DNA of 64,000 nucleotides from Trypanosoma brucei (lineage: Eukaryota). How positions within the stretch are numbered: position 1 is the first letter of the stretch; every line of letters starts with the position of its first letter. The stretch spans positions 192,001 through 256,000 of the forward strand of contig AE017150.2 in assembly GCA_000002445.1 (NCBI GenBank), in the 5' to 3' direction. Shown here piece after piece: positions 4,318-57,988 of this stretch. Below the pieces are notes generated by a model. It was not told the origin of the DNA, searched no databases, and was given only the letters and a program-made list of their open reading frames with translations. Position numbers and translations under genes: made by a program.

Positions 4318-5048
4318 TTAACTCATCATCATATTTCGAATCATCAGTGATAGAGCTTGGCAACCGTACGATTCGATAACTCCAACATTTGCCTTCACTC
4401 TTACAACCTTTACCAACTTGTCCGTAACTTCATTGTTCTTCCAGGCAGCCGTATGCTCAATAATATCATTATAGGAATATTCATCCGACTTCTTCATAGT
4501 TTCCAACGCATCATGCACACTTTTCAGACGCCATTCATAACAGCTTAAACCAAATATATATAACGAGGCAGAGGTCCAATTGAATTCATACGTCCCTCCA
4601 CTATTCTTTCCACTCATCTTCCATTTCCTTTCTCAATTCGTGCCTTCTTCTGTTGGATACCTTTTCCCTTGCATGTATTGACAGCTTTTTCCATGCCACA
4701 AATGCCTTCATGTCACGCACATCATCACAGTTTATAATAATTTGGCGGCCTCCCGTATTTGTAGTCCAGTTACCAAAACGGACACTTATGGGGAAATCGA
4801 GAAACGTTACACTCCAAACATCAGAGGGAAGTTGAGTGTAAAGCTGCTGCGTTTCGTACCTTGTGTCCATAATGATGTGTCCTCTGTTTTCAAATTTTAT
4901 TTTATTTATGGCGTTGACCGCAGCTCTCGAATATTGGTACTGCACAACCCTCCCTCTTTCATCACCCTTTCTGTTATATATTAAGTAGGCGATCGTGTCT
5001 GTGAAATACGCAACAACATCAAACATTCCTTCATGGAAGTGAAGCAGT

Positions 5049-5060
5049 GAATGAAGCAAA
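5049..5060. repeat. Target-site duplication (AATGAAGCAAAA), 3' side of the RIME
   Basis: Exact 12-bp copy of 5591..5602, directly abutting the poly(A) tail. Confidence 0.8.
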
Positions 5061-5280
5061 ATTTTTTTTAGAATTTTCTTCGTGCCTTCGTGAGAGTTTC
5101 CCCCCACTGGCGCGGCCATCAGCCATCACCGTAGAGCCCTGAGATGCTATCGGTCTGGCGACTGTGGCAGAGTCTCCCTTTTTTATTCATCCTAACACAC
5201 CCTCTACAATTTTTGTTGTATTTCCGCATATGAACGGAATACAGCAGATGGGGCGAGAAGCCTCCCACCCCGGACTCTCC

Positions 5281-5298
5281 AAAGGATGCCAATTAGCA

Positions 5299-5335
<37 letters not shown>
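5281..5335 (-). repeat. Homopolymer (A)55 on the minus strand ((T)55 on plus), internal to the RIME at the junction of its two halves
   Basis: Direct read. The equivalent position in the second RIME (11036..11508) carries only A7. Confidence 0.9.
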
Positions 5336-5336
<1 letters not shown>

Positions 5337-5511
5337 CGGAGTTCCACATCACCGGACAGCAGCATCTTAGTGCGGATGATACTGCTGATGGCACGCTGGC
5401 ACGTGCCCAGGGACCGACAAATGAAAAACGGTGTCCCAGCAAGACGCTGCTGATCCCTGTGCTGTATGATGCCGTAGCCGGAGCACAGCAGTGTTCCCCA
5501 TGAAAGGAACG

Positions 5512-5590
5512 CTGCTGGCTCTTGGCTTCCCCCGATGATACGGGGTACTGGACCCTGGCACCACGTTGAGGTGGCCGGCATCGCCAGGGA
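5512..5590 (-). promoter_or_regulatory. Pr77-like conserved 5' hallmark of ingi/RIME, reported to act as an internal promoter
   Basis: First ~79 nt of the element, matching the conserved 5' end shared by ingi, RIME and L1Tc. Function is inferred from the literature only. Confidence 0.45.
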
Positions 5591-5602
5591 ATGAAGCAAA
5601 AA
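5591..5602. repeat. Target-site duplication (AATGAAGCAAAA), 5' side of the RIME
   Basis: Exact 12-bp copy of 5049..5060. A 12-bp TSD is the known ingi/RIME signature. Confidence 0.8.
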
Positions 5603-6616
5603 TGATCCAACACCGTATGATTTACCAATACCAGGTGTACCAATAACAATATGTATCGGTGAATCCACCACTGCGTCATTCAGCCACCATGTTTTCAGAT
5701 CCTTTTGGATTTTATACCACACGCGCATAATTTCACGACGGATATATACATGCTGAAATGCTGCTTTGTGCCCCGTAGTGTAATCCAATGCAAACCTGTT
5801 GTATGGCCAACCTTCCTCCGAAGTGAGAACAAAAATCTCCAAACCATTGGGTCTCTCCTCAATCTCTGCATCAACATTCGCAGGAAGAGGAGTTACATCC
5901 ACCTCCGCTTCGGTCCATATGCGCCGTGGCCTTCCATTGAATACTTTCATTCCAAGTGGCTCTGTATGATAACCCGACATCACATAACTCCATTTCGCAT
6001 TATATATGGATTCATACACTCCTCTCAGTTCGACAGCACCACCAGCTGTTTGGGCAGCTCGTTCCCCCACTTCTTTGGCAATGCGCAGTGCCCTGTCCAA
6101 CTTTGTCGCTGCCACGGGACCAACAAATTCCCTTATTTCCCCTCTTCCCTTCTCCTCCCACTGACTGAGGGTGCTAATCCCATTACGAGGCAGATAAATA
6201 ACTGCCCTCAGTAATTGAAACTCATCAAGCCCCCGTATAATTCCTTGAAGCCTTGCATCCAAAATATAATCCTCCGGGCTCTGAACAAAAATGGGCATCC
6301 TAACATTTTCTGCTTCAGCCACCGCAAAAGTCCCGCCAACGAACTTCTGAATAAAGTCGTTCACTGTCATTTTACGCAAACCCGCATAATCTTCCAGCAG
6401 CACATCCCTCACCTTACTATCCATTGTCCAGTTGGGCCCCCCCTCATTTCTCTGCCGTATCTGTGGAGGCTGAGCAGCAGCAGCAGCAGCAGCAGCAGGA
6501 GGAGCAGGCGGTACATTTTCATCCCGTGGCCTCCTCATGGGCCCTTCAATATTACCTGCCACTTGTTGGTTTGCATTATTTCCTTGTGGAGCTGCGGGAC
6601 TATTTGCTCTTGACAT

Positions 6617-9605: not shown

Positions 9606-11035
9606 TCAGTCAGCGGGGCCACCAGCAATAGCGTTTGGTTCATCCTGGGTGATCTCCTTAACAATATTCCCTTCCATCTTCACTTGAAACTGGTTGATTT
9701 TATTCCACAACTCTGTAGTATAATCGCCTCTGCCCCCAACTGGTTCGCACTTCTGCCTCACATCGATTGGCTTGCTGTCACTGTACTGTATGTAAATTAG
9801 CTCCCATTTCAAGTTTCTTGCGAGCTTATCCCATTCACGAAACAATTGTTTCATTGCCTTGATAAACTTATCTACCTTCGTTCGTGTCGTGTGATGCGTT
9901 GGTGCCACTGTCGGCTGGAGCAGAACAATTGTTGTTGCGGTGATCGCTCTTCCTTCTCTATCAACAGCTGGCTCAGTTACAAAGAAAAAGGCGTTCACAA
10001 CGGGGAAATTTCCCTGTACAGGTCGGTAAAGGCACCCAACCTCAATGTCTTGGCCTGTCGTTTCGGGGTTAAACTGACGAAGTGAAGTTGGAACACGTCC
10101 CACGGCATTACCACTTGCCAGAGCGGATACATTTGAATCCATTTCTTCTCCAACGCGAGGGAGATACCGCAGGTGCGTCACAATCGTCTGCACAACATTT
10201 CCCATCGTGAAGGCATATATGCCCACATTTTCAAATTCATCATTGGCCTGCTCTTCTTTCCCACGAAAAACCTTCCGAAGGTAATTGTCTCGCATACATG
10301 CTGTGTCCGCCCACACTCTCAATTTCTGCTCAATATAAACGGAAACAGCTCTGTTTCTGCATTCTTCTCATTCTCAGTTACAACCCGGACCAACTTAGCC
10401 AACCTGTATGTAGTCCCGTCCTCGCGCCATTCAACTCGACCATTCAGCACCTTCATGTAGTGTTCAGCATCGCCTCTACTGATTTCCTCCAGTGCCCCAT
10501 TTATTTCTCTAACATGGTCACAATAGGGTTTGTCACCTTCCAGTACGTGGCGGGGCAGTGGGCCCACCTTCTTAATCCATCCTAATATTTTCCCCCATTC
10601 GTTCTCAAGGTTTATGATGTGAGTTTCGGTGATTTTACTTGCCTCCAACTTTGACAGCCGCCTCCACGAAACCGCAGCCTTCAGTTCCACCTTTTCATAG
10701 CAATTGATGCAAAGGAACTCGTAACCCCGTGGTTCCTTCCACTCTCTGTAGTTATTTGGATCTGGAGATGTCAACACAATTACGGGCCACGCTCCCGGCA
10801 ATTTTGTCGGTATGGGTTCATCTCTCTCTTTCGAAAAGTCGTATATAATGTAACCAAGAAGCTTTTCATCAACGAAGGCCTTCACAGCATCCAATCCATC
10901 TACTTCCTCTTCATAGAATACAACCCTTCCCGGATGATCGTTTGTCGCCCTGAAGAAAATATATGCCTCGCCCTTCACAAAATAAGCGATATTCCGCAAC
11001 AGCTCCTAATCGTAATGCAGCAACCCTTGGAGCAG
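9606..11035 (-). pseudogene. RHS: RHS 3' two-thirds (hot spot to C-terminal domain) with a frameshift near 10320. It is 5'-truncated by a RIME.
   Basis: ORFs 10319..10999 and 9606..10322 (minus) align to the 675-aa RHS from LLHYD.ELPVVAYF through the C-terminal NFPVVNAFFFV and WELIYIQ motifs. The RIME 3' end abuts the FLLQGLLHYD codons. Confidence 0.8.
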
Positions 11036-11508
11036 AAATTTTCTTCGTGCCTTCGTGAGAGTTTCTCCCCACTGGCGCGGCCATCAGCCATTACCGCAGA
11101 GCCCTTAGATGCTATCGGTCTGGCGACTGTGACAGAGTCTCCCTTTTTTATTCATCCTAACACACCCTCTATAATTTTTGTTGTAGCTCCGCAGTTGAAC
11201 GGAATACAGCAGATGGGGCGAGAAGCCTCCCACCCTGGGCTCTCCCAAAGATGTCAATTAGAAATCCTTTTTTTGGAGTTCCACATCACCGGACAGCAGC
11301 ATCTTAGTGCGGATGATACTGCTGATGGCACGCTGGCACGTGCCCAGGGACCGACAAATGAAAAACGGTGTCCCAGCAAGACGCTGCTGATCCCTGTGCT
11401 GTATGATGCCGTAGCCGGAGCACAGCAGTGTTCCCCATGAAAGGAACGCTGCTGGCTCTTGGCTTCCCCTGATGATACGGGGTACTGGACCCTGGCACCA
11501 CGTTAAGG
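11036..11508 (-). mobile_element. RIME, second copy. It is 5'-truncated by ~22 bp, has no 3' poly(A), and carries an A7 at the half-junction.
   Basis: Near-identical to the 5061..5590 element except at its ends and the internal A tract. It ends ...GAAGAAAATT directly against RHS sequence. Confidence 0.8.
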
Positions 11509-12560
11509 CAGATTCATTCTTAGTGTAAGCTAAATACTCGCTGGCCGCGGGGATCGATTCCGGTACTATCTGCGACGACCAATCTACTTAACCACTAAAC
11601 CAGCGTAAGCCGAATATAATAGCCAGCACCAACTGATTTCCCAATACCTGCACTGCCGACGAGGACGCAAGGAATCTGTTTTTCGATCAGCCCTGACTCC
11701 AGCCACAAATCCAGCCTGTGCTTCACAAGATACCACACTCTCATTACCTCTCGACGAATGTACACATCCCGGTCAAACACGTAGTCTCCTGGTTCCTCCG
11801 CATCCTCTTGAATTGCATGTTCCGGAATGCTGAAAGAGTTATATGGCCAACTCTTCTGCGAGGTGAGCACAGCAATCTCTAAATTACCGTGACGAGGCAG
11901 TGGGTCGCACAAGTCATAAGGCGTGTGACTGACATTCACCTCCTCTTCTGTCCACAACTCGGGCTCGCCGTCACTATTACCCACCACCTTCATGCCAAGA
12001 GGTAAATCATTGTGACCCGACTCTACATAACCCCACGTCGCATTATATATAGAATCATATACTCCTTCAAGGTTTACAGCACCAGCAGCTGTTTGGTCAG
12101 CTTGCTTTTCCTTGCTTCTTTGGAAATGCGCAGTGCACTGTCCAACTTCGCCGCTGCAGTGAGGCAACAAGTTCCCTTATTTGCGCTGTTGCCCTCTCTT
12201 CCCAGTGCTGCATGTCTTCAATTCTATTACTAGGAGGGTAAATAACTGCCCTCGGTAATTGAAACTCGTCAGTATCCTGTATATCCTCAAGAATCTCGGC
12301 ATCAACATTAATATATCTTCTGAGATTATTAACAAACACATCCATGGACACATTCTCTGTGTTATACGTGTTTGAGGAAAACTGATTCAAAAAGTCATGC
12401 AGTTTCATTTCACCCAAACTCGCATAATCTTCCAGCAGCACATTTTCAATAGAACTGTTAATTGATCAAGTTGGCCCTCTTCCTCCTCACGCAGTCTCTT
12501 CGAAAAATACAATGGCGCATGCAACCTATTACTATGGAAACGCCTTATTGAATTCCACAC
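11509..12560 (-). pseudogene. RHS: Degenerate RHS 5' part (divergent subfamily with GSAGIGKS P-loop), upstream of the second RIME
   Basis: ORFs 11595..12170 and 12097..12441 (minus) show LLEDYASL, DEFQLPRAVIYPP, LEGVYDSIYNATWGYV, the P-loop, and then a degenerate hot-spot region. There are stops, frameshifts and no clean start. Confidence 0.7.
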
Positions 12561-13539: not shown

Positions 13540-15567
13540 TTACCTTCGGCCCGCAGCAGCCACCGCAAGCATTTTGATAACTATGTTATCCTCATACTGC
13601 ACATGGTACTGCTGCACATTGTTCTTCCAGAATCCCTCCACAAACTGGTGACTGCGGTGCTTTGCCTTACCCTGTGTAATTTCACACTTCTGCTCAGACC
13701 TCATCGCTGTGGATTCGAAGTGCTGAACGTAAATGATTTCCCAGTGAAACATCTCAGTAATTTCCTTCAACTGCTCAACGGTAGCCTCATTCTGGTGACC
13801 ACCCCCCTCCGCACTTGGCAAGAGGGATTGTAGCAAATGAATGAATTCGTCGGTTTTTGTGTCATGTCTGCTGGCAACAGTAAACTGCAACAACACAATA
13901 GTTTTCTTTCCTGTGGTTCCTGAAGCCTGTGCAGCCTGCTCGTCATCAACAATAAAGAATGCATCCGCTACGGGGTAGTTGGGAACGCATGGCACATATA
14001 ATTCCACCGGAGCCCCCTCCGACTCAGCCCAGTTGATGTCACCTGGCACTGTTTTTGGTCGACGGACTTTGAGGAGGCCATCCCTTACGTGTTGCAAAAT
14101 GCTTTTGCGTGTCCTCATGCGTCTGGCCCTTTCATTTGCTGGAAGTTTCGTTATTAGATTTACGAAGCAAGTTAACACTCTGGGGGAACACAAATATTTA
14201 ATTGCATTCTCCTCAAAATAAAGCCCGATGGCAGATGCATTCCGCATCATACCAGTTGTCAGTGCCCACTCCTCAGCAATGCCGGAAAACACTACATTCA
14301 AAATTCTTTTCTTTATAGATTCAGAATGCGCCACGCAGACATACGTGTCAAAGGAGTTTCCTTCTCGAGCTTTGATACGAACGATCTTCACGAGCTTATG
14401 TGATGCATCATTGTCCCTCCATTCCCCACAGTTGTCCAGTACCTTAGTATATATTCCGTACTTGTTACCTGCTACGATACTCCCCAATTCCCCGTCCACT
14501 GCAGTAAGCTCCTGTCCATACATTACTTCGTCAAACACATAACGAAGTGAAGGTCCGACACGCTCCACACGGTTCTCATACATGTTCCACTTTTCCCTCA
14601 ACTCAACATGCGTGGCTTGAGGAAAAAGCTTGGGTCCCATACGTGAGAAGAAAGCCCGCATTTCACTCATTTCCCAGCAGTTAACAACAATAAACGCGCC
14701 TTTACGTTGCTTTTGCCAGCTGTCAAAATTTCTCAAATTAGGTGAACTGATCAAAATGCTTCCCCATTTTGGAGCCACATCTGCCGGTGGCTGCTCGCCT
14801 TTTTTGACAAAGTCATAAATAACATAACCACGTGTATTAGATGATATAACCTTCATAAACGTTATAGCCGCTTCTTTACTGTACTCCCTAACTCTGCCAA
14901 CGCCACCACCACCTGATTTCTCAAATATATATGCGGCTACACCACGGAAGTACGCAACAACAGGTAACTCTTCCGCATCATAATGCAATAACTTGTAGAG
15001 GATAAAAGAACCCAAATTCTGAGATTTACCAATCCCAGGATTACCAATGGCAACGTATGATCGTGGTAAATAAGGACATCCCGGTATAACACGCTGGGCA
15101 CGCCATAATTCAATTCCACTCCTTACAAAATTCCATACACGGAGCTCTTCTCTGCGAATGAATATGTCACTGTTACTTCCCCGGGCAAAGTCTGTATATG
15201 GCCAACCCATTTCAGACGTAAGAACCAACAGCTCCACTCCTTTAGTGCGTTCCGGCTTCTGTTCAAGAGTTTCCTCAATTTCAGGCACGACATTAACTTC
15301 CTCATCCTTCCACATCAAACCCTCATTGGGCATTCCATCAACCATCCTCATTCCCAATGGTTGAGTTCCATCGTCGATAATAATATAACTCCATTTCGCA
15401 TTATAGGTGGAATCGTATAATTTCTCTTCGAGAGACTTGCCCTCTCCGGTTTCTGATGGGTTCTCGTTTTGTCGGCCGGCTTGTCTCTTCATTGGGCAGT
15501 ACGCACCATTCAACCATCCATTTAAAACATTCCGAGTATCTCCTACACTACCGCCGTTCTGATTCAT
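13540..15567 (-). CDS. RHS: RHS protein, intact 675-aa ORF (MNQNGG N-terminal module, GNPGIGKS P-loop)
   Basis: Uninterrupted ORF with the YNAKWSY motif, a P-loop followed by LGSFILYKLLHYD (a divergent, unoccupied hot spot), and the C-terminal PVADAFFIVDD and WEIIYVQH motifs. Confidence 0.85.
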   Translation of the reverse strand: MNQNGGSVGDTRNVLNGWLNGAYCPMKRQAGRQNENPSETGEGKSLEEKLYDSTYNAKWSYIIIDDGTQPLGMRMVDGMPNEGLMWKDEEVNVVPEIEETLEQKPERTKGVELLVLTSEMGWPYTDFARGSNSDIFIRREELRVWNFVRSGIELWRAQRVIPGCPYLPRSYVAIGNPGIGKSQNLGSFILYKLLHYDAEELPVVAYFRGVAAYIFEKSGGGGVGRVREYSKEAAITFMKVISSNTRGYVIYDFVKKGEQPPADVAPKWGSILISSPNLRNFDSWQKQRKGAFIVVNCWEMSEMRAFFSRMGPKLFPQATHVELREKWNMYENRVERVGPSLRYVFDEVMYGQELTAVDGELGSIVAGNKYGIYTKVLDNCGEWRDNDASHKLVKIVRIKAREGNSFDTYVCVAHSESIKKRILNVVFSGIAEEWALTTGMMRNASAIGLYFEENAIKYLCSPRVLTCFVNLITKLPANERARRMRTRKSILQHVRDGLLKVRRPKTVPGDINWAESEGAPVELYVPCVPNYPVADAFFIVDDEQAAQASGTTGKKTIVLLQFTVASRHDTKTDEFIHLLQSLLPSAEGGGHQNEATVEQLKEITEMFHWEIIYVQHFESTAMRSEQKCEITQGKAKHRSHQFVEGFWKNNVQQYHVQYEDNIVIKMLAVAAAGRR

Positions 15568-18946: not shown

Positions 18947-20686
18947 TTAACTCATCATCATATTTCGAATCATCAGTGATAGAGCTTGAAATTTAAATGA
19001 TTCGATAAATCCAACATTTCCCTTTACTCTTACAACCTTTACCAACTTTTCCGTAACTTCATTGTTCTTCCAGGCAGCGGTATGCTCAATAATATCATTA
19101 TAGGAATATTCATCCGACTTCTTCATAGTTTCCAACGCATCATGAACTCTTTTCAGACGCCATTCATAACAGCTTAAAACAAATATATAACGAGGCAAAA
19201 GCCCAATTGAATTAATACGTCCCTCCACTATTCTCCACTCATCTTCCATTTCCTTCCTCAATTCGTGTCTTCTTCTGTTGGATACCTTTTCCCTTGTATG
19301 TATTGACAGTTTTTTCCATGCCACAAATGCCTTCATGTCACGCACATCATCACAGTTTATAATAATTTGGCGGCCTCCCGTAATTGTAGTCCAGTTACCA
19401 AAGTGGGAACTATTCGGGGAAGTGAAAATAGTTACACTCCAAACATCAGAGGGAAGTTGAGTGTAAAGCTGCTGCATTGCATACCTTATGTCCATAATAA
19501 TGTGTCCTCTGTTTTCAAATTTCATTTTATTTATGGCGTTGACCGCAGCTCTCAAATATTCGTACCGCACAACCCTCCCTCTTTCATCACCCTTTCTGTT
19601 ATATATTAAGTAGGCGATCGTGTCTGTGAAATATGCAACAACATCAAGCATTCCTTCATGGAAGTGAAGCAACGAATGAAGCAAAAATGATCCAAGGCCA
19701 TATGATTTACCAATACCAGGTGTACCAATAACAATATGTATCGGTGGTCTGTGAGCTGTCTTTTCCACCCACCATGTTTTCAGATCTTTTTCGACTTTAT
19801 ACCACACGCGCACAATTTCACGACGGATGTATACGTGCTGAAATACTACTTTGCGCCCCGTAGTGTAATCCAATGCAAACCTGTTGTATGGCCAACCTTT
19901 CTCCGAAGTGAGAACAAAAATCTCCAAACCATCGGGTCTCTCCTCAATCTCTGCATCAACATTCGCAGGAAGAGGAGTTATATCCACATCTTCTTCGGTC
20001 CACATGCGCTGCGGCCTTCCATCGAACACTTTCATGCCAAGTGGCTCTGTATGATAACCCGACATCACATAACTCCATTTCGCATTATATATGGATTCAT
20101 ACAATCCTTTCAGTTCGACAGCACTACAAGCTGTTTGAGCAGCTCGTTCCCTTGCTTCATTGAGTGCATCATTCAACATGTTAGTGACAACAATCCAAAG
20201 GCGCTCTCCATCTCTCAGTCCACGAATATCCGCCTGTAACCTGACCTTTGCTTCCTCATCTGCTTGTTGCCAGCGCTGAAGATTCAATATTCCCTCATCC
20301 TCAAAGAAACCATAGACGCTGACAAAACGTTTGTACACTTTATACTCTGTTGTCGCGAATATTCGATTGAGCGCATTAACGTCATTAATATACTCTTCAG
20401 GTTCCAGTACGAACGCAGACATTGATACATTATTTTCTTCATTCACATTATATCTTCTGCCAAAATTACGCCTCAAAAAATCATTCAACATCATATTTCT
20501 AGGATGTGGCAGACCATTCAGCAAAACTGCGTCAACGCAGCTGAAAAGACCCCATTGTGGTTGGTTGTTATTCTCCACTCGTTGCTGCACTACTGGAGGT
20601 TCCGCATCGTTACGCGCAGCCTCCTCATTTTCTCGTCTCCTTCCCTCAATGTCACCCCTTCCTTCAATAGGAACCTGTTGATTCAT
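18947..20686 (-). CDS. RHS: RHS protein, intact 579-aa ORF (MNQQVPIEG N-terminal module). It lacks the usual C-terminal domain.
   Basis: Uninterrupted ORF with GTPGIGKSYGLGSFLLHSLLHFHEGM and an unoccupied hot spot at 19675..19686. It ends MIRNMMMS*, exactly where the 4318 fragment ends. Confidence 0.8.
   Translation of the reverse strand: MNQQVPIEGRGDIEGRRRENEEAARNDAEPPVVQQRVENNNQPQWGLFSCVDAVLLNGLPHPRNMMLNDFLRRNFGRRYNVNEENNVSMSAFVLEPEEYINDVNALNRIFATTEYKVYKRFVSVYGFFEDEGILNLQRWQQADEEAKVRLQADIRGLRDGERLWIVVTNMLNDALNEARERAAQTACSAVELKGLYESIYNAKWSYVMSGYHTEPLGMKVFDGRPQRMWTEEDVDITPLPANVDAEIEERPDGLEIFVLTSEKGWPYNRFALDYTTGRKVVFQHVYIRREIVRVWYKVEKDLKTWWVEKTAHRPPIHIVIGTPGIGKSYGLGSFLLHSLLHFHEGMLDVVAYFTDTIAYLIYNRKGDERGRVVRYEYLRAAVNAINKMKFENRGHIIMDIRYAMQQLYTQLPSDVWSVTIFTSPNSSHFGNWTTITGGRQIIINCDDVRDMKAFVAWKKLSIHTREKVSNRRRHELRKEMEDEWRIVEGRINSIGLLPRYIFVLSCYEWRLKRVHDALETMKKSDEYSYNDIIEHTAAWKNNEVTEKLVKVVRVKGNVGFIESFKFQALSLMIRNMMMS
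19675..19686 (-). other. Unoccupied hot-spot target site AATGAAGCAAAA
   Basis: Same 12-mer as the RIME target-site duplication. Confidence 0.7.
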
Positions 20687-27958: not shown

Positions 27959-30484
27959 TCACCCTCCTTGCGCTCCCGCTTGCTCGTTGCGTGGCTGCGG
28001 CGCAGGCTCCATGGCCAGAAGTGGAGCATCCCGATACCAACATTCATCTCTATATGCTCGCATTAGCTGCCCCTGCATTTCTTCCCTTAACGTTACTTGG
28101 TATTGAGCCATGTTTCTCCACATATCTGCCGCTTCGGCGGGGTTGTCGCCATCACAAAGCTGCCATCTTGTAATCACACCACCGTTAACCGAATTAATGT
28201 ATATCATCTCCCAAACCATGTTGCGGGAAAACGCACCCCAATCAGAAAAATATCTTGCCATGTTTTCTCGGAACTTCTTCACCTTATCCGTAGTGGTGGG
28301 GTGCCTCTCCGACTTGGTTACTTGTAAAAGCACAGCTATATTTGGAGTGGTCGGTGGCGCTGCTCCGTCACGGTTTCTCCTGAACCGCCCCTCAACGAAA
28401 AAAAAGCCATCCACCACGGGTTCATTGCCTGTGGCAGGGCGGTAGAGAACCATGTATTCACAATTATCAATTGGTTGCTGGTGGGTCGCAGGTAAGGCCT
28501 TCTGCCCAATGAGTCTCAACTGCTGAGGAGCCATGTCGTTCAGTATGCATCGTTTCTCTTCCAGTCCGCCAGGCCGCTGCAGGTATTTTAAGTTTTCTGC
28601 GATAACTTTAAAAACTCGAGGGAAAAGAAGCGAAAGCAACGCCCTTGATTCAAACACGTTGGCTGCGGCACTCTCGTCTGACATCGTAACTTGACAGATA
28701 GCCATTTTCTCCACATCAATGGCAAGCAGTTTGAAAAATATAGCATTCCCAATGCAAACCGAAAGTGGCCGGCAGCGGTATTCATCGACGCTCTCTCCGG
28801 CATCTCGCACACGGACGATTTTCACTAACCTGTGCGTTACCTTATCATTTCGCCAATCGGCAATTTTCCCCATTATGTCCTCGTAGTGACTTTTGTTGTC
28901 ACCATTGATGGACGTTATCATCTTTTTTGCCTGAGACACACGTTTTGTGTACCCCGCGCTGTTGTAAACGCAACGAGGCACTGGCCCAACCACATTAATA
29001 CGGCTCTTTATTGTTTCCCACTCATTTTCAAGTTCTTCTACAATCCTCGCCTGAGCTTCTTCATCAAGTGCCGCATAGCCTGATGCTACAGACAGCTTAG
29101 TCCATGCCACAAATGCCTTCATGTCACGCACATCATCGCAGTTTATAATAATTCCTACGTCTCTCTTGTCTTTTGACCAGTGATGAAAATGGGCCTCATC
29201 CGGAGAAGTGAGGAGAGTTACACCCCAAGCGTGAACCGGCAGACCATCGGGTGGCGTCTGCGCATTCTTGCATATGTCAACAATGATGTGCCCTTTTTTT
29301 TTCTTGAATACTAACGCAGCTATGACCCTAACAGCAGCTTTCACGTCTTCATATTCCTCAACCCTTCCCTCTTCCCCGGGTTTCTTGTTATATATTAAAT
29401 AGGCGATCCCGTCTGTGAAATACGCAACAACATCAAACATTCCTTCATGGAAGTGAAGCAATGAATGAAGCAAAAATGATCCAACACCGTATGATTTACC
29501 AATACCAGGTGTACCAATAACAATATGTCTCGGTGTTATATCAGCTTTTTCCACCCACCTTCCTTGCAGCCCTCGTTGGATTATATACCACACGCGCATA
29601 ATTTCACGACGGATATATACATGTTTAAAATTTTCCCAGCATATCTCAGCGTCATCCAATGCAAACCTGTTGTATGGCCAACCCTTCTCCGAAGTGAGAA
29701 CAAAAATCTCTAAACCATAAGGTCTCTCCGGCACTCGTGCATCAAGATTCGCAGGAAGAGGATTTATATCCACCTCTTCTTCAGTCCACATGTGTGGCGG
29801 TCTTCCATCGAACACTTTCATGCCAAGTGGCTCTTCATCATAACCCGACATCACATAACTCCATTTTGCATTATAAATGGAATCATACACTCCTTCAAGG
29901 TATACAGCACCATCAGATGCCTGGGCAGCTCGCTTTTCCGCTCTCTTGGCGGCTATCACTGCAGCATCCAACCTTCCCCTCGCCACGGGACCAACAAATT
30001 CCCTTATTTCTCCCTTTCCCTTCTCCTCCCACTGACTGAGGGTGCTAATTTCCTTTTCGTCAAGGTAGTCTACCTTCTCAGACAGATCAATAGCTGTCTT
30101 CACTGTTTTAAACTCATCAGTGCCCCGTACCCTTCCTAGAAGCCTGGCATCCAAAATATAATCCTCCGGGCTCTGAACAAAAATGGGCATCCTAACATTT
30201 TCTGCTTCAGCCACCGCAAAAGTCCCGCCAACGAACTTCTGAATAAAATCGTTCACTGTCATATCCCTCAAACCCGCATAATCCTCCAGCAGCACATCCC
30301 TCACCTTACTATCCATAGTCCAGTTGGGCCCCCCTTCAGTTCTCTGCCGTATTTGTGGAGGCTGAGCAGCAGGAGGCGGTACATTTTCATCCCGTGGTCT
30401 CCTCATGGCTGCTCCAAAATTACCTGCCACTTGTGGATTTTCATTATTTCCTTGTGGAGCTGCGGGACTATTTGCCCTTGACAT
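27959..30484 (-). CDS. RHS: RHS protein, intact 841 aa. MSRANSPAAPQ start at 30484; the listed ORF extends further upstream to 30601.
   Basis: Full-length ORF with GTPGIGKSYGVGSFLLHSLLHFHEGM, an unoccupied hot spot at 29464..29475, and the C-terminal PVVDGFFFVEG and WEMIYI motifs. Confidence 0.85.
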   Translation of the reverse strand: MSRANSPAAPQGNNENPQVAGNFGAAMRRPRDENVPPPAAQPPQIRQRTEGGPNWTMDSKVRDVLLEDYAGLRDMTVNDFIQKFVGGTFAVAEAENVRMPIFVQSPEDYILDARLLGRVRGTDEFKTVKTAIDLSEKVDYLDEKEISTLSQWEEKGKGEIREFVGPVARGRLDAAVIAAKRAEKRAAQASDGAVYLEGVYDSIYNAKWSYVMSGYDEEPLGMKVFDGRPPHMWTEEEVDINPLPANLDARVPERPYGLEIFVLTSEKGWPYNRFALDDAEICWENFKHVYIRREIMRVWYIIQRGLQGRWVEKADITPRHIVIGTPGIGKSYGVGSFLLHSLLHFHEGMFDVVAYFTDGIAYLIYNKKPGEEGRVEEYEDVKAAVRVIAALVFKKKKGHIIVDICKNAQTPPDGLPVHAWGVTLLTSPDEAHFHHWSKDKRDVGIIINCDDVRDMKAFVAWTKLSVASGYAALDEEAQARIVEELENEWETIKSRINVVGPVPRCVYNSAGYTKRVSQAKKMITSINGDNKSHYEDIMGKIADWRNDKVTHRLVKIVRVRDAGESVDEYRCRPLSVCIGNAIFFKLLAIDVEKMAICQVTMSDESAAANVFESRALLSLLFPRVFKVIAENLKYLQRPGGLEEKRCILNDMAPQQLRLIGQKALPATHQQPIDNCEYMVLYRPATGNEPVVDGFFFVEGRFRRNRDGAAPPTTPNIAVLLQVTKSERHPTTTDKVKKFRENMARYFSDWGAFSRNMVWEMIYINSVNGGVITRWQLCDGDNPAEAADMWRNMAQYQVTLREEMQGQLMRAYRDECWYRDAPLLAMEPAPQPRNEQAGAQGG
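29464..29475 (-). other. Unoccupied hot-spot target site AATGAAGCAAAA
   Basis: Same 12-mer as the RIME target-site duplication. Confidence 0.7.
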
Positions 30485-42372: not shown

Positions 42373-44562
42373 TATTACTGAGCGCTGCTTACGCACGCAG
42401 CTTATATAATGTCACATGCGTTGTGATTTGTAGAGGGGAGTGGGCCACCAGAAATTAGGTCATTTTAATGTCAATAAGTTTTTACCGCTTGTTGGAGCCG
42501 TCATTCCCCGCACTTAACCGTTTCGAACCGAGGAGTTGGTAAAAGACGGCCAATCAACGGCATCGTCGACACCGTGGCCATCAGTACGGGATTTTACATA
42601 CGGTAACGAAGCGTGGGCATATGTTTTTCTTTAAACGTCATTTTTTAAATTTTTCTGTACATTGTTGCTGTCACTTCTACGAAGTATGGCCAGAATGTTA
42701 GAGTAGTGCATTTGTGTGCAAAACGAAGAAAATAATACTCCCCTTGTTTTTCTTTCCCTCTTGGGTTGTATGAAAAGAGGGGGCTCCTGTTTGTAGGATG
42801 ACAAGAGCTGTTTTGTTTCTTTCCTCAAAAAAAATTACATGCTCCATAGTTGCTCCAATATTCCCATCCCTTCATTGGAAAATGACCCGACGGCTCCGTC
42901 CATGTGAGTGAAGCGGTGTCCCTGATATTTGCCCTGATGCTTTTTCTTTTTTCCACCGTGGAACCTGCACTGCACTGCACTTGCGTTCCCTCATCCCCTC
43001 TTACAGTTATCCGTTTCACTTCCCCTGTTGAGGGATGCGTATTTCCAACCGCGCGAGATATCAAACAGTAAATCTGTCGGACAAACAAAAGGCTAAGAAA
43101 TTCGTCACATAAACTTATGAGCTTTCACCACTGAGGCACGCACGCTCACCAACACCAACAAAGTCAAGCAAAAGGCGCTGCATATTAATACTCAATGGCG
43201 CCATAATGTTCCCTTTCGTGTTCCCTTTTCCCTCTTCCTTCCGTTGGGGTTACACAACACTTGTGGGAACCCGCTTCACTTCCTCCTTTTCCAATTATGA
43301 AGGTAACTGTGTTTTGTTTGCCACACTTCCGCTTGTTATTTCTCCAACTGGTTTCACTTTCAGAAGTCGCGTGTACACCACTTGTGGAGAAAATATTACA
43401 TTAAGCAAAACCAACAACGAAAAAAATGGCAATACATTCTAAAACATTCCCTCAACATTGCAGAACTCATGAAAGGAACCATGGTTACTGCCACCAGGCT
43501 AAGCAAAGACCAAAAGGCTTTTGAAATGTGTTTTCGAATCGAATGTACCACTGGTATTTCTTTAACATGCAAACACAACAGAAATCACGGCATGCACGAA
43601 CACGAGTGCCAAGCTTCTTATAGAGATATTTCAATACCTGAAAAAGGGACCGGGACGCAAAGTTTGGGGATGGAATTTCCCCGCCTGTAGCGGTGATTAT
43701 CTAAGACATTCAATCAACGCATTTCCGACTGTCCACAGTTAATCGGAAACCGTAGTGACCATATGTCTCCCTAATTACTGTTGTCCCTTCAGTTTTCACA
43801 GTAGATGTTTCAATTGGCTTCTGCGGCCGAGGTAAATAAAGCGTATGCGTCATATCCGGGAGGTGTTTTCATGTGTCTTCGCTTTCCGTTTTGTCACTGC
43901 GTTTGGGCTCACGCAATGACATTAATTGAAATTTAGGCCACTACCATAGATGGGTGGCTCGTGGAGGGAATGAAGATTGGGATTATTCTAACAGCTTTGT
44001 GGTTGTGTGTGCCGTGCTTTTGGAAAATATTGCAGCCAATGAAAGGGAAGGCAAGTGTCACCTTGCTTTCCATGCCGCGGCATCAATGCATAAGAATTAT
44101 ATGCTAGTTGCTCTGCAAGGGAAGGTCGTGAAGGCGAAGGTTAGCTTCCGGTTTAAGGAAGTGCAAAGACTTCCTGATACTACTGTCAGAAACTACTGTT
44201 GCTGCGTGCTCCAGGCACTGGGTCAGTAATTCATAAATACAGCAACGAGAATAAAATTAATCCCTTGTGGCTGCTAAGCGTGTAAGCAACTGAGAATAAT
44301 AAACAGTATATTTTTGCCACACTTTATTGATTTCTTTATATATACAAAACAACTACACTGCAATTATTTATCGTTTCTCTTTTCAGTTGGAGGACACCGA
44401 ATAAGGGTTAGGATTACTGACCATAACACATTTTGGCATGCACCTCAATTACTTCCTTATAACACTTCCCCCCATTTGATTCATCGCTTAGCTCTATTAT
44501 TAAAAAAGAAAAAGCATTTCCTCAACACTCAGCACCTCAAGGAATCGGAAACGGGAACCACA

Positions 44563-47500
44563 ATGTCAGGAAACCAAGGAAGAAAGCGACAGCGCAGCTC
44601 ATCACCTGAGCAGTCAGAAGCTTTAAGGGAACCATCAACTACTGAACAAAATAAACTCACCACCGTTACAATCACCGAAGAGACGCGTGACGCCAGTAAT
44701 GATGAAACTGTGGTATCATTACTGAATGAGCATAAGAAATTGATTAAACAAACGACACGGCTGGAAAGCAGTGTGAAGGCACTTAGGTGTTTCATGAGTA
44801 ATCTCACAGCTATGAGTGGCGAAAGGCAAGGTGGTGTGTGTGATGACACCGAATGCATACATAGAGTAACATTATATAATGCTGCTGATAATGCCTTCAG
44901 TGACGAAGGACTATATGAAGGTGCTCTTTCCTCACTCTGTGGCCGCATTCATACCAAGAAATTAACCATCACGTTATCAAAAGGTTGGAAATTTAACTTA
45001 GAACGAGTCAGTAAGCTAAAACAGTTGGAAGAGTTACGCATTGAATATCCGCGTGGCAAACTTGTGAATATGATATCTTTGAAGAAACTGCACATGTTGA
45101 AAAGGCTTTGTCTCAGGAGCAACAATATTGACAACAATGATATTCACTGCATATTCAGTGTTGGAACATTGGAGGAGTTGGTTATTACTGACACCATGCA
45201 ACTGACAAATATCAGAGGAATCTCTCGCTTGACTAACCTGAAGTGTCTTGAGTTAAATTCCACAGATATTGACGATAGCTGTATAGGGGAAATAAGTGCA
45301 TGTGCTAAACTGTCCAAATTGAGTGTATCCGAATGCAACAATATCACGGATACAACCCCAATTTCACAGCTTGAAGCACTGGAAGAGTTGAATCTAAACA
45401 GCTGTTACCACATAACGAAGGGAATAGGAACAGTTGGCATGTTGTTACGATTGCGTATACTTGACTTGAGTGGTGTTCCTGTGGAAGATAATTGTCTGAA
45501 GGGTTTGTGTGATTGTGGATCGCTTGAAAGGCTGAACATTTCTTATTGTATTCAGCTGAAAGATATCAATCCACTCTCCAATGCCACTGCTACTGAGGAA
45601 TTGAACCTTAACGGTTGTCGCCGAATAACACGAGGGATAGGCGTTGTGTGGGCATTACCAAAACTCCGTGTATTGCACATGAAGGATGTGCACCTGAGCG
45701 AGCCATCTCTCGATTCAGTTGGGACTGGTGGATCACTTGTAAAGGTCAGTCTTGATAACTGCGCAGGCTTTGGTGATATGACACTCTTATCCAGCATTGT
45801 TACACTCGAGGAGCTGAATATTCAAAAATGTGCTGACATCATTAGTGGTGTGGGTTGCCTTGGTACACTACCGTACCTGCGTGTACTTAACATAAAGGAG
45901 GCACACATCTCGTCCCTTGACTTTACTGGTATTGGTGCCTCAAAATCCCTTTTACAGCTCAATATGGAGAGTATCACGGGACTGAGTAATGTGGAAGCAC
46001 TTGCCAACATTTTGACTCTGGAAAAACTAAGCCTTCACGGCTGCACGGGTATTGACGCAGGAATTGGTTGTCTCGGAAACCTGCCACAGCTTAAAATGTT
46101 GGACCTGTCTGGCACAAATACCGACAATGAGTCTCTCAGAAGTTTATGCCTATCACAGACAATGGCGTCCCTCAACCTTTCCCATTGTTGGAAAATGACA
46201 AATGTGTCCCATATTTCAAGCCTTGAAGCATTGAATGAACTGAATCTGAGCAACTGTTTTGGAATAAATGCAGGATGGGAAGCAATTGAAAAACTTCAGC
46301 AGCTACATGTGGCAATCCTCTCGAATACACATATTACTGATAGAGGCATATCCTATTTTAGCAAGTGCAAAAACCTTGTTACGCTTGATCTTTCTTTCTG
46401 CAATAAGTTACTTGATGTTACAACTCTCTCCAACATCACTACGCTTGAGGAGTTGAATCTTGATAGTTGTTCAAACATCAGAAAAGGGCTGAGCGTTCTT
46501 GGAGAGTTGCCATGGCTTTGTGTGTTGAACATAAAGGGTGTGCACTTGAAAGATTCAGTTATTGTTTCACTAGGGAACGGTAACTCATTTGTAAGGCTCA
46601 GTCTTGAGAACTGCAAAGGGTTTGGTGATGTCACGCCTCTCTCAAACCTTGTTACACTTGAAGAACTGAATCTCCACTACTGTGACAAAGTAACCTCTGG
46701 AATGGGAACACTGGGCAGGCTACTGCAGCTTCGTGTACTGGATTTGGGACGGACACAAGTTGATAATAATTCCCTTGAGAATATCTGCACAAGCTCAATC
46801 CCACTTGTATCATTAAATCTTTCGCATTGCAAGAAAATAACATCTATTTCTGCAATAGCTTCCCTTACGGCATTGGAGGAACTCAGCATTGGCAACTGCT
46901 GTAATGTAACATCCGGTTGGAATGTATTTGGTACACTTCACCAACTGCGTGTCCGTACTGTCAAACACACGCATTAATGATGAAAAAATACGGCACGTTA
47001 GCGAGTGCAAGTCTTTGAATACACTCAACCTTGCGTTTTGCAAAGATATAACAGACGTCACAGCACTTTCTAAAATTACTATGCTTGAGGAGTTGAACCT
47101 TGATTGCTGCCCTAACATCAGAAAAGGTATTGAAACTCTTGGAACGCTTCCCAAGGCACGTATCCTAAGCATGAAGGAATGTTACATGGGAGACGGATAT
47201 GCGCAACAATGTTCCATCCTTGGGAATAGTAAGTCACTTGTGAAACTGAATCTTGAGAGGTCAATGGGATTCATACCTGTGAAAGCTCTCTCTAACATTG
47301 CAACGTTGGAGGAATTGGTACTTGATCATGCACGGGAAGTATGTTGTATACCGTCATTTTCCTGTCTACCGCGCCTTCGAGTACTGAATCTGAAATATAC
47401 AGATATTAATGGTGATGTAACTAAAAATATTTCCGAATCGAAATCGCTGCAGTCACTCAACTTATCACATTGCAAATGGGTAACTGATATATCAGTATTA

Positions 47501-48745
47501 TCTTCATTATCAACACTGGAGGAGCTGAATGTTAACTGCTGCAATGGAATACGAAAAGGCTGGGAGTCGCTCGGGAAGCTGCCTCTACTACGTGTAGCAA
47601 TTCTATCTGATACCAACATCACCGCTAAAGATATAGCTTGCCTTAGCAGTTGCAAAAAGCTGGTGAAACTGCAGTTTTTCCGGTGTGAGAAGTTGTCAGA
47701 TGTTACGGTGGTGTATAAAATTCAATCACTGGAGGAACTGATAGTTAGGAGCTGTTCAGACGGCCTCAAGGGACTAAATGACCTTGGTACACTCCCACGG
47801 TTGCGTTTTTTCCATCTGCGAAATGTGAGAGGTAGTGATATATCTGTTGAATCTATTGGGACGAGCAAATCTCTCGTGAGGCTTAATATTGAAGTGGGCG
47901 AGGAGTTAACAGACATAACACCCCTCTCCAACGTCACGTCCCTTGAGGAATTGTCATTGCGGGATTACCGTAAACCCCCGGAAGGAGTCTGGACACTTGG
48001 GAGGTTACCACGGCTTAAATCGCTGGATCTCGGTTTATCTCGCATTAGCGATAGCACACTTTATTATATTTGTCTGTCTCGATCAATTACGTCACTCAAC
48101 CTAGACTCCAGTTGGAAACTAACAGACATATCTCATATATCAAACCTTACGGCACTGGAGGAATTGAATCTGAGCGGATGTTACCGCATAACTTCAGGCT
48201 GGGAAGCACTAAGCGAATTACCACGACTTCGTGTGCTCAACTTGAAATCCGCCAGTGTCACGACGCGTTACGATGGATATTATATCAGCAGATGCAAATC
48301 CCTCGTCACACTGAATATTCAATTGAGTGATATGACCGATGCTTCATGTCTTGCTAATATCAAGACACTGGAGGAGTTGCATATAGGGAAATTCAAAGAG
48401 CTAACGCAGGGGTTTAGTGCACTTTTCACTCTTCCGAGGTTACGCATTCTTGACCTGTTTATGTCGCGCATTACAGATGAAGATCTCAGGGAAATTCAAC
48501 CACCCCATACCATTGAGGAACTCAATCTTTCTTATTGTGAGGAGCTCAATGATATTACACCACTTGGGAGAATAAAATCAATTAAAAAATTGCATCTCCG
48601 TCAGAGACATGATGTCAGAACGCCCACAGAAGGATTCAGAAGTCTTTTGGAATTGCCATGTCTTTCTTGGGTTGACCTAGACAACGTGTGTGGCTGGTCT
48701 GATGTTTCTTGTGAACTGAGAAAAAGGAGGGTACATATCCGTTAA
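44563..48745 (+). CDS. LRRP: Leucine-rich repeat protein (LRRP, ESAG8-like LRR family), about 1390 aa. The reading frame breaks once near 46950 (a -2 shift), so this is either a pseudogene or a sequencing error.
   Basis: ORF 44314..46977 (real start probably MSGNQGRKRQR at 44563) and ORF 46922..48745 together hold more than 40 tandem 23-25-aa LRRs of the LEELNLSxCxxITD / LxxLxxLRVLxL type. Repeat periodicity is continuous across the frame break (…GTLHQLRV / LSNTRINDEKIRHVSECKSL). Confidence 0.75.
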
Positions 48746-56937: not shown

Positions 56938-57162
56938 ATGTCAAGAGCAAATAGTCCCGCAGCTCCACAAGGAAATAATGAAAATCAACAAGTGGCAGGT
57001 AATATTGAAGGGCCCATGAGGAGGCCACGGGATGAAAATGTACCGCCTCCTCCTGCTGCTGCTCAGCCTCCACAAATACGGCAGAGAACTGAAGGGGGGC
57101 CCAACTGGACGATGAACAGTGAGGTTGAAGATGTATTGCTGCAACGCTATGCGGCTTTGTAA
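56938..57162 (+). pseudogene. RHS: RHS N-terminal fragment (MSRANSPAAPQ module, 74 aa), truncated at ~57160
   Basis: MSRANSPAAPQGNNENQQVAGNIEGPMRRPRDENVPP...GGPNWTM reads on to a stop where intact copies continue LEDYAGL. Confidence 0.75.
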
Positions 57163-57164
57163 TT

Positions 57165-57654
57165 TTTTCGCTGTCAACCCTTTGAACATAAATTATTTCC
57201 CATACCATATCATTGGAAAATTTGTCCCAATGTTTGAAGTAACTTCGCAAATACTTCTTCATCTTAAATAACCCACTGGTGCTGCAGTATTGTTTATCGG
57301 AAATTGTGAATTGCAGTCCCACAAAAGTCTTCGGGTTCTCAACAAAAAAGAACGCATCAACAACTGGGAAATTTCCTGATTGCGGCTTGTACAAAATCAT
57401 GTATTCAATTTCAGTTCCAGCTCTAATTGTAGAATCATGAGCAACCTCAATCAAAGGATTCGTGAGTCTTGCTTCTTGCAGCACCTGCAGCACACTTTGT
57501 GGAGTTTGATTCCTAGCAAATGAGAGGCCCCGTAACTCCTTTGCCAACTCAATTAGTGCATCCTCATGCGACAATACTTCAATGTCACTCTTCTTGAAAC
57601 GATAAGCAGCGAGGGTACGGTTAGACAGCAGTTGAGATACTAAAGCAGACTTTT
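57165..57654 (-). pseudogene. RHS: Divergent RHS C-terminal-domain fragment, in frame with the upstream ingi fragment
   Basis: Part of the 275-aa ORF 56936..57763 (minus). YMILYKPQSGNFPVVDAFFFVENP and NDMVWEIIYVQRVD match the RHS C-terminal signatures (PVVDGFFFVEG/WEMIYI; PVADAFFIVDD/WEIIYVQH) at roughly 30-40% identity. Confidence 0.6.
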
Positions 57655-57724
57655 CCTGTATAAAAGGTGCTAATCTCTTTCCTTGAGATAACCCGGCGCA
57701 GTTCCACTGCATCCCGCGCAACGA

Positions 57725-57748
57725 CGGGCCGGGATTCTCTTCCACATC
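57725..57748 (-). other. 2A-like self-cleaving peptide motif DVEENPGP at the ingi ORF1 N-terminus
   Basis: Direct translation. D(V/I)ExNPGP is the canonical 2A motif known from L1Tc and ingi. Confidence 0.7.
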
Positions 57749-57909
57749 ACTGGACAGCAGCATCTTAGTGGGGATGATACTGCTGATGGCACGCTAGCCA
57801 CGTGCCCAGGGACCGACAAATGAAAAACGGTGTCCCAGCAAGACGCTGCTGATCCCTGTGCTGTATGATGCCGTAGCCGGAGCACAGCAGTGTTCCCCAT
57901 GAAAGGAAC

Positions 57910-57988
57910 GCTGCTGGCTCTTGGCTTCCCCCGATGAGACGGGGCACTGGACCCTGACACCACCTTGATGTGGCCAGCATCACCAGGG
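57910..57988 (-). promoter_or_regulatory. Pr77-like 5' hallmark of ingi
   Basis: First ~79 nt of the element. Function is inferred from the literature. Confidence 0.4.

Follow-up and report, generated by a model that had tools for sequence, protein, structure and literature searches.

A TbRIME at the RHS insertion hot spot of Trypanosoma brucei with a 34-base A-run at the junction of its two halves

TbRIME is a retroposon of ~0.5 kb that joins the ~250 bp at the start of ingi to the ~250 bp at its end, the 4.7-kb core being deleted (PMC2323293). A 12-bp target-site duplication is the published rule for Tbingi and TbRIME (PMC3820030, citing Bringaud 2004), and the same source presents a conserved motif upstream of the insertion site, named ‘ingi4’, as the sequence presumably recognized by the endonuclease. 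For RHS genes, the hot spot of retrotransposon insertion is placed ‘five codons downstream of the ATP/GTP-binding motif’ in PMC7563717 (citing Bringaud 2002). The element described here is like the TbRIME and ingi copies of RHS pseudogenes, as the summaries in PMC7563717 and PMC3820030 present them, in its sequence, its construction from two halves of ingi, its 12-bp duplication and its A tail; it is also like them in its sense insertion five codons past the P-loop and in the empty sites found in paralogues. The sole difference is the homopolymer where the two halves meet, which has 34 bases here and 6-16 in the other sampled copies.

Two other families provide useful comparisons. Among well-studied cases, the human Alu element (PMC3812793) comes closest: it is likewise short, GC-rich and non-autonomous, with halves linked by an A-run that expands and contracts. 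The Alu halves, however, are 7SL-derived monomers, whereas RIME, in a kinetoplastid host, has halves taken from both ends of ingi, its autonomous partner. The middle A-linker of Alu and the tails of retroposons expand and contract by slippage and are highly mutable above about 8-9 A, and polymerase slippage is an established cause of growth of the A-stretches inside Alu and L1 (PMC3812793). NARTc of Trypanosoma cruzi (PMC2323293) is also a non-autonomous derivative of an ingi-clade LINE; it shares the 5’ signature of RIME and likewise has a poly(A). It represents a 3’ deletion, in which 0.25 kb of the 5’ end is followed by a tail, whereas in RIME the internal A-run is followed by the 3’ end of ingi.

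The current work deals with a single stretch of T. brucei DNA, 64,000 nucleotides in length, which is called the window. This sequence is taken to be part of chromosome 2 of T. b. brucei TREU927. Reading of the sequence together with a homopolymer scan identified a complete TbRIME of 528 bp, the 0.5-kb non-autonomous partner of the T. brucei ingi LINE, on the minus strand at 5062-5589, in the sense orientation relative to the RHS gene that contains it. The order on the plus strand is AATGAAGCAAAA at 5050-5061, T8 at 5062-5069, a block of 233 bp, T34 at 5303-5336, C at 5337, a block of 252 bp at 5338-5589 that finishes with ...CGCCAGGG, and a second AATGAAGCAAAA at 5590-5601. In reverse complement, the element starts with CCCTGGCGATGCCGGCCACC... 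and finishes with ...GAAGAAAATTCTAAAAAAAA, where the T8 is read as the A8 of a 3’ poly(dA) tail. The element is clean and full-length, flanked by perfect target-site duplications, and without N’s or breaks. The original prediction of a RIME in the RHS hot spot is thus confirmed and fits what has been published on TbRIME and RHS (PMC3820030, PMC7563717); its bounds of 5049-5602 were one base too wide on either side, and the tail that it gave as A10 is A8.

For comparison, full RIMEs were taken from four loci (L001, L003, L004 and L009) and a complete ingi from L007, the loci belonging to T. b. gambiense DAL972 and T. b. equiperdum. L006 contains another DAL972 ingi, but an assembly gap affects its 3’ junction and it was left out in favor of L007, and the T. 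equiperdum contig L008, which ends short of the RIME position, was also left out. A search with the RIME read-through peptide matched 11 annotated proteins. The RIME junction is spanned by just three annotated proteins overall, P0027 and P0028 from this search and P0003 from another protein search, so the sample of copies is small; a genome has about 70-90 RIMEs. Outside the A-run, the element is 97.7% identical to the DAL972 RIMEs of L001 and L004, and the bodies of independent RIME insertions are 95-98% identical.

Both halves of the element could be assigned by alignment, on the minus strand. The 5’ half (252 bp, 5338-5589) is the ingi 5’ end, terminates with ...GATGTGGAACTCC, and shows 99.2% identity to L001, L003 and L004 and 95.6% to ingi L007 at 9993-10240. 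The 3’ half (233 bp, 5070-5302) is the ingi 3’ end and begins with GGATTGCTAATTGG. In element coordinates, positions 1-248 align to L007 9993-10240 at 95.6% and positions 255-528 to L007 14978-15251 at 90.5%. Since the two halves match both ends of ingi, the element is a RIME in the sense of the definition in PMC2323293.

The first 79 nt of the element (5511-5589, minus strand), which begin with CCCTGGCGATGCC..., are the signature common to trypanosomatid retroposons of the ingi/L1Tc clade (PMC2323293), and alignment shows this signature to be intact. Among four aligned full-length RIMEs, the signature (CCCTGGCG...) at the 5’ end contains one difference, in L003; it is missing from the second RIME of the window, a 5’-truncated copy. 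In L1Tc, the signature region has been reported as the Pr77 promoter and an HDV-like ribozyme (PMC1874656, PMC4035085). An Rfam scan of 4900-5800 returned only chance-level matches, with no family on the 79-nt signature, and ARAGORN detected no tRNA in the window.

The 12-mer AATGAAGCAAAA has 5 exact matches in the window (287, 5050, 5590, 19675 and 29464), and 0.04 are expected from shuffled sequences. Two of them are the target-site duplication of the RIME, both read on the minus strand: the upstream (5’) copy at 5590-5601, which is TTTTGCTTCATT in the sense of the element and the gene and encodes F-L-L-H of the RHS protein, and the downstream (3’) copy at 5050-5061. The copies are identical at 12/12 positions, and this single pair brackets the entire 528 bp. 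The other three matches, also on the minus strand, are unoccupied hot-spot sites, located by the 12-mer search and alignment. One (287-298) belongs to another RHS copy; one (19675-19686) lies in an RHS gene that is intact and encodes TREU927 protein P0006, which is 100% identical to window 18950-20686; and one (29464-29475) lies in an RHS ORF of 880 aa. When the element and one copy of the duplication are taken out, the remaining sequence aligns through the site with these three paralogues. Both the perfect 12-bp duplication and the presence of the unoccupied 12-mer in three RHS copies, at the homologous position, are therefore as originally predicted.

The host RHS gene is a pseudogene, which carries an additional frameshift besides the insertion. 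Its 5’ part (5602-6616, minus strand) contains DUF7578, RHS_N, and the first 22 positions of the RHSP P-loop domain (Pfam), and its nearest named protein is RHS3 (Q8WPQ6, 72-73%). Its 3’ part (4318-5049, minus strand) matches positions 17-165 of the RHSP profile and then 179-239 in another frame. The RHS_N and RHSP domains are thus split by the element, with RHSP positions 1-22 upstream and 17-165 downstream. Translation across the junction gives IVIGTPGIGKSYGVGSFLLH|SLAMPATS, in which IVIGTPGIGKS-YGVGS-FLLH is followed by |SLAMPATS. The insertion point is five codons past the RHS P-loop (GTPGIGKS YGVGS | FLLH), and the translation therefore places the insertion at the published RHS hot spot. 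A comparable case is the DAL972 RHS pseudogene in L001, in which a RIME occupies the homologous codon with an 11/12 duplication.

The RHS N-terminal ORF on the minus strand (5204-6616) runs in frame into the RIME, passes through A34 as R-K11, and stops at a TAG in the 3’ half of the RIME, giving a chimeric ORF of 470 aa. Protein searches with this ORF matched Trypanosoma RHS proteins in every case. The 470-aa ORF has no identical counterpart among recorded proteins. Exact-protein look-ups for this ORF, for the ORF at 13540-15567 and for P0006, aimed at the same locus in other assemblies, gave no match in an index that apparently lacks TREU927 and leaves pseudogenes untranslated. The expansion of the run was also considered in terms of frame conservation; compared with A7, the G and the tract lengthen the sequence by 28 nt, which is not a multiple of three, and no coding argument can be made from it.

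The internal homopolymer lies at the junction of the RIME halves (5303-5336, minus strand) and is A34 in the sense of the element, with G at 5337 before it. As assembled, it has 34 bases, and the next-longest homopolymer in the 64-kb window has 13. Five independent RIME copies were available for comparison, with runs of 34 here, 7 in the second copy of the window, 6 in L001, 16 in L003 and 6 in L004. The boundaries of the run are alike in all aligned RIMEs, namely ...GATGTGGA(A/C)CTCC - An - G(G/A)ATTGC..., with GAATT in L003. The arrangement CTCC-G-A34, with a G ahead of the run, is peculiar to the 5062-5589 copy among the RIMEs aligned. The tract had been predicted to contain 55 A, but it contains 34; the 7 A attributed to the second copy were found as A7 at 11268-11274, and the statement that the tract is unusually long holds against the four other RIMEs.

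Runs of 6, 6, 7, 16 and 34 in the five RIMEs sampled indicate that the junction run behaves like a mononucleotide microsatellite, expanded in the 5062-5589 copy. In full-length ingi, an interrupted A-rich stretch, AATAACAAAAATCAAAACAAAA, stands directly ahead of GGATTGC, the start of the 3’ RIME half. Because the stretch precedes the half in this way, the run of RIME is probably inherited from ingi, from the site of the deletion that gave rise to RIME. No description of length variation in the internal A-run of RIME was found in the literature searched, which lay outside the primary RHS/RIME papers.

The identity, anatomy and position of the element and the differences in run length among copies are direct observations. 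Taken as a whole, it is highly probable that a TbRIME was inserted at the RHS hot spot and that its junction run has grown to 34 A by slippage, like the middle A-linker and the tail of Alu, as a poly(A) microsatellite borne by a retroposon. Judging from the established properties of the family, the endonuclease and reverse transcriptase encoded by ingi would have carried out target-primed reverse transcription into the hot spot, where staggered nicks 12 bp apart would account for the perfect duplication of TTTTGCTTCATT. This event would have made the RHS gene a pseudogene, with an ORF that now enters the element. The run between the halves (CTCC-An-GGATT), usually of 6-7 A, would have reached 34 A in the 5062-5589 copy through strand slippage on a mononucleotide repeat, and slippage during DNA replication after the insertion appears to be the most likely route. 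Fragility and allele-length polymorphism of the A34 tract are plausible, by comparison with the poly(A) microsatellites borne by other retroposons (PMC3812793).

Information on change after insertion may be found in an orthologous RIME of chromosome 1, whose run is A16 in T. b. gambiense DAL972 (L003) and AAAGAAAA in T. b. equiperdum (L009). Comparison of L003 9993-10725 with L009 18587-19095 shows that the 5’ flank and the 5’ duplication are alike. The L009 RIME has ~15 differences from L003 in its 3’ half and is without the 3’ duplication and ~230 bp of flank, which suggests recombination or conversion between retroposon copies. Such an event may have swapped the tract of the L009 RIME, in place of slippage. 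The assembly of T. b. equiperdum is based on PacBio reads and may therefore carry homopolymer errors. The difference in run length within this pair is thus only suggestive of change after insertion, since the pair is confounded by these signs of recombination.

Slippage after the insertion has to be weighed against an origin of the long run before or during retrotransposition, either from a master RIME with a long run or through stutter of RNA polymerase or reverse transcriptase. Independent insertions range from 6 to 34 while their bodies are 95-98% identical, as such an origin would allow, and CTCC-G-A34, being unique to the 5062-5589 copy, could mark a sub-lineage. No second G-An copy, however, was present among the RIMEs sampled, a tiny sample, and the confounded chromosome 1 pair differs in its run between subspecies, which points to change after insertion. 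A length set before or during retrotransposition is a real alternative, though the less likely reading. An artefact of sequencing, cloning or assembly, whether it produced the long tract itself or only its exact length from a much shorter real run, is improbable. It is difficult for any sequencing chemistry to size a homopolymer of more than 30 bases, and such runs may change on cloning in E. coli; the other sampled RIMEs carry 6-16 A. The element is nevertheless clean and full-length, with perfect duplications and without N’s or breaks; a shift of a few bases is likelier than 27 extra A’s, and an independent assembly, with A16, provides an example of a longer junction run.

The tract could also be read as the 3’ poly(A) tail of a separate, NARTc-like 5’ half, behind which a 5’-truncated RIME or ingi 3’ end was inserted. 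There are precedents for both parts of this explanation: NARTc of T. cruzi is a 0.25-kb 5’ fragment with a tail (PMC2323293), and tandem insertions are common in the ingi clade (PMC3820030). The boundaries of the tract (…GTGGAACTCC / GGATTGC…), however, are the canonical RIME junction of the other copies. Moreover, tandem insertions are parted by a copy of the 12-bp duplication (PMC3820030); none stands between the RIME halves here, and the one duplication pair surrounds the entire 528 bp. No half-RIME with a tail appeared anywhere in the window or among the nine loci. The alignment of the junction rules out tandem insertions and a half-RIME, and this reading is effectively refuted, with hardly any probability left to it. 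Growth of the run by slippage in a single inserted RIME remains the preferred explanation.

In its biology, the insertion is an already described and ordinary kind of event, a RIME at a known RHS hot spot, and the length-variable junction run with its 34-base allele is ordinary behavior of poly(A) borne by retroposons. The primary descriptions (Bringaud et al. 2002 Eukaryot Cell 1:137; 2004 Mol Biol Evol 21:520) are said to have used the reference genome that contains this chromosome 2 cluster. The insertion is a textbook case of the event behind the name of the RHS genes, in the reference strain of the first description. The variation in run length, from 6 to 34 in few copies, could offer a cheap polymorphic marker and be a source of local instability in RHS clusters, as any long retroposon-borne poly(dA) would be expected to. 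Further roles are very doubtful, namely those of a truly hypermutable RIME run whose long alleles would act as a strain-typing or fragility marker in RHS clusters, would form a U34 polypyrimidine tract on antisense transcripts, or would let target-primed reverse transcription start within the element and so spawn NARTc-like half-RIMEs in T. brucei.

Other retroposon sequences were also observed in the window. A second RIME, on the minus strand, occupies the RHS hot spot at 11037-11508; it is 90.8% identical to the first (BLAST within the window), 5’-truncated by about 18 nt, and without an A tail. In the region of 11037-11620 (minus strand), an RHS_N ORF lies upstream of this RIME and positions 31-243 of the RHSP profile lie downstream. 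Unrelated sequence stands in place of its first ~18 nt and of the P-loop codons next to them, which points to a secondary deletion or rearrangement at the 5’ junction.

BLAST within the window further revealed a match to the 5’ part of RIME only, at 57740-57988. It belongs to an ingi-type 5’ end at 57152-57988 (minus strand), which continues with GAAGAGAATCCCGGCCC as full ingi does, is cut after about 300 nt, and is directly joined to an RHS C-terminal segment (RHSP profile 269-311; 86% to P0017 aa 436-617). This arrangement looks like the deletion remnant of an RHS pseudogene disrupted by ingi.

In ingi L007, the 12-mer GTGGAAGAGAAT occurs twice (in the regions of 10232-10250 and 14960-14985), once at the endpoint of the RIME 5’ half and once some 45 nt ahead of the 3’ RIME half. 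The repeat is a possible microhomology relevant to the origin of RIME; the junction actually found in RIME (GTGGAACTCC-An) differs from the simple product of recombination between the L007 12-mers.

The T. theileri protein P0034 (annotated as partial) contains a peptide like that of the ingi/RIME 5’ end, with 69% identity, together with a precomputed PF01457 domain. This combination suggests an ingi-clade 5’ end read into a neighboring gene in T. theileri.

At the scale of the window, the sign of the GC skew flips near 34 kb, with the RHS array on the minus strand before this point and genes on the plus strand beyond. At 44314-48745 the plus strand contains two long ORFs with leucine-rich repeats. 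The pattern is consistent with a strand-switch region adjoining the RHS cluster at ~34000.
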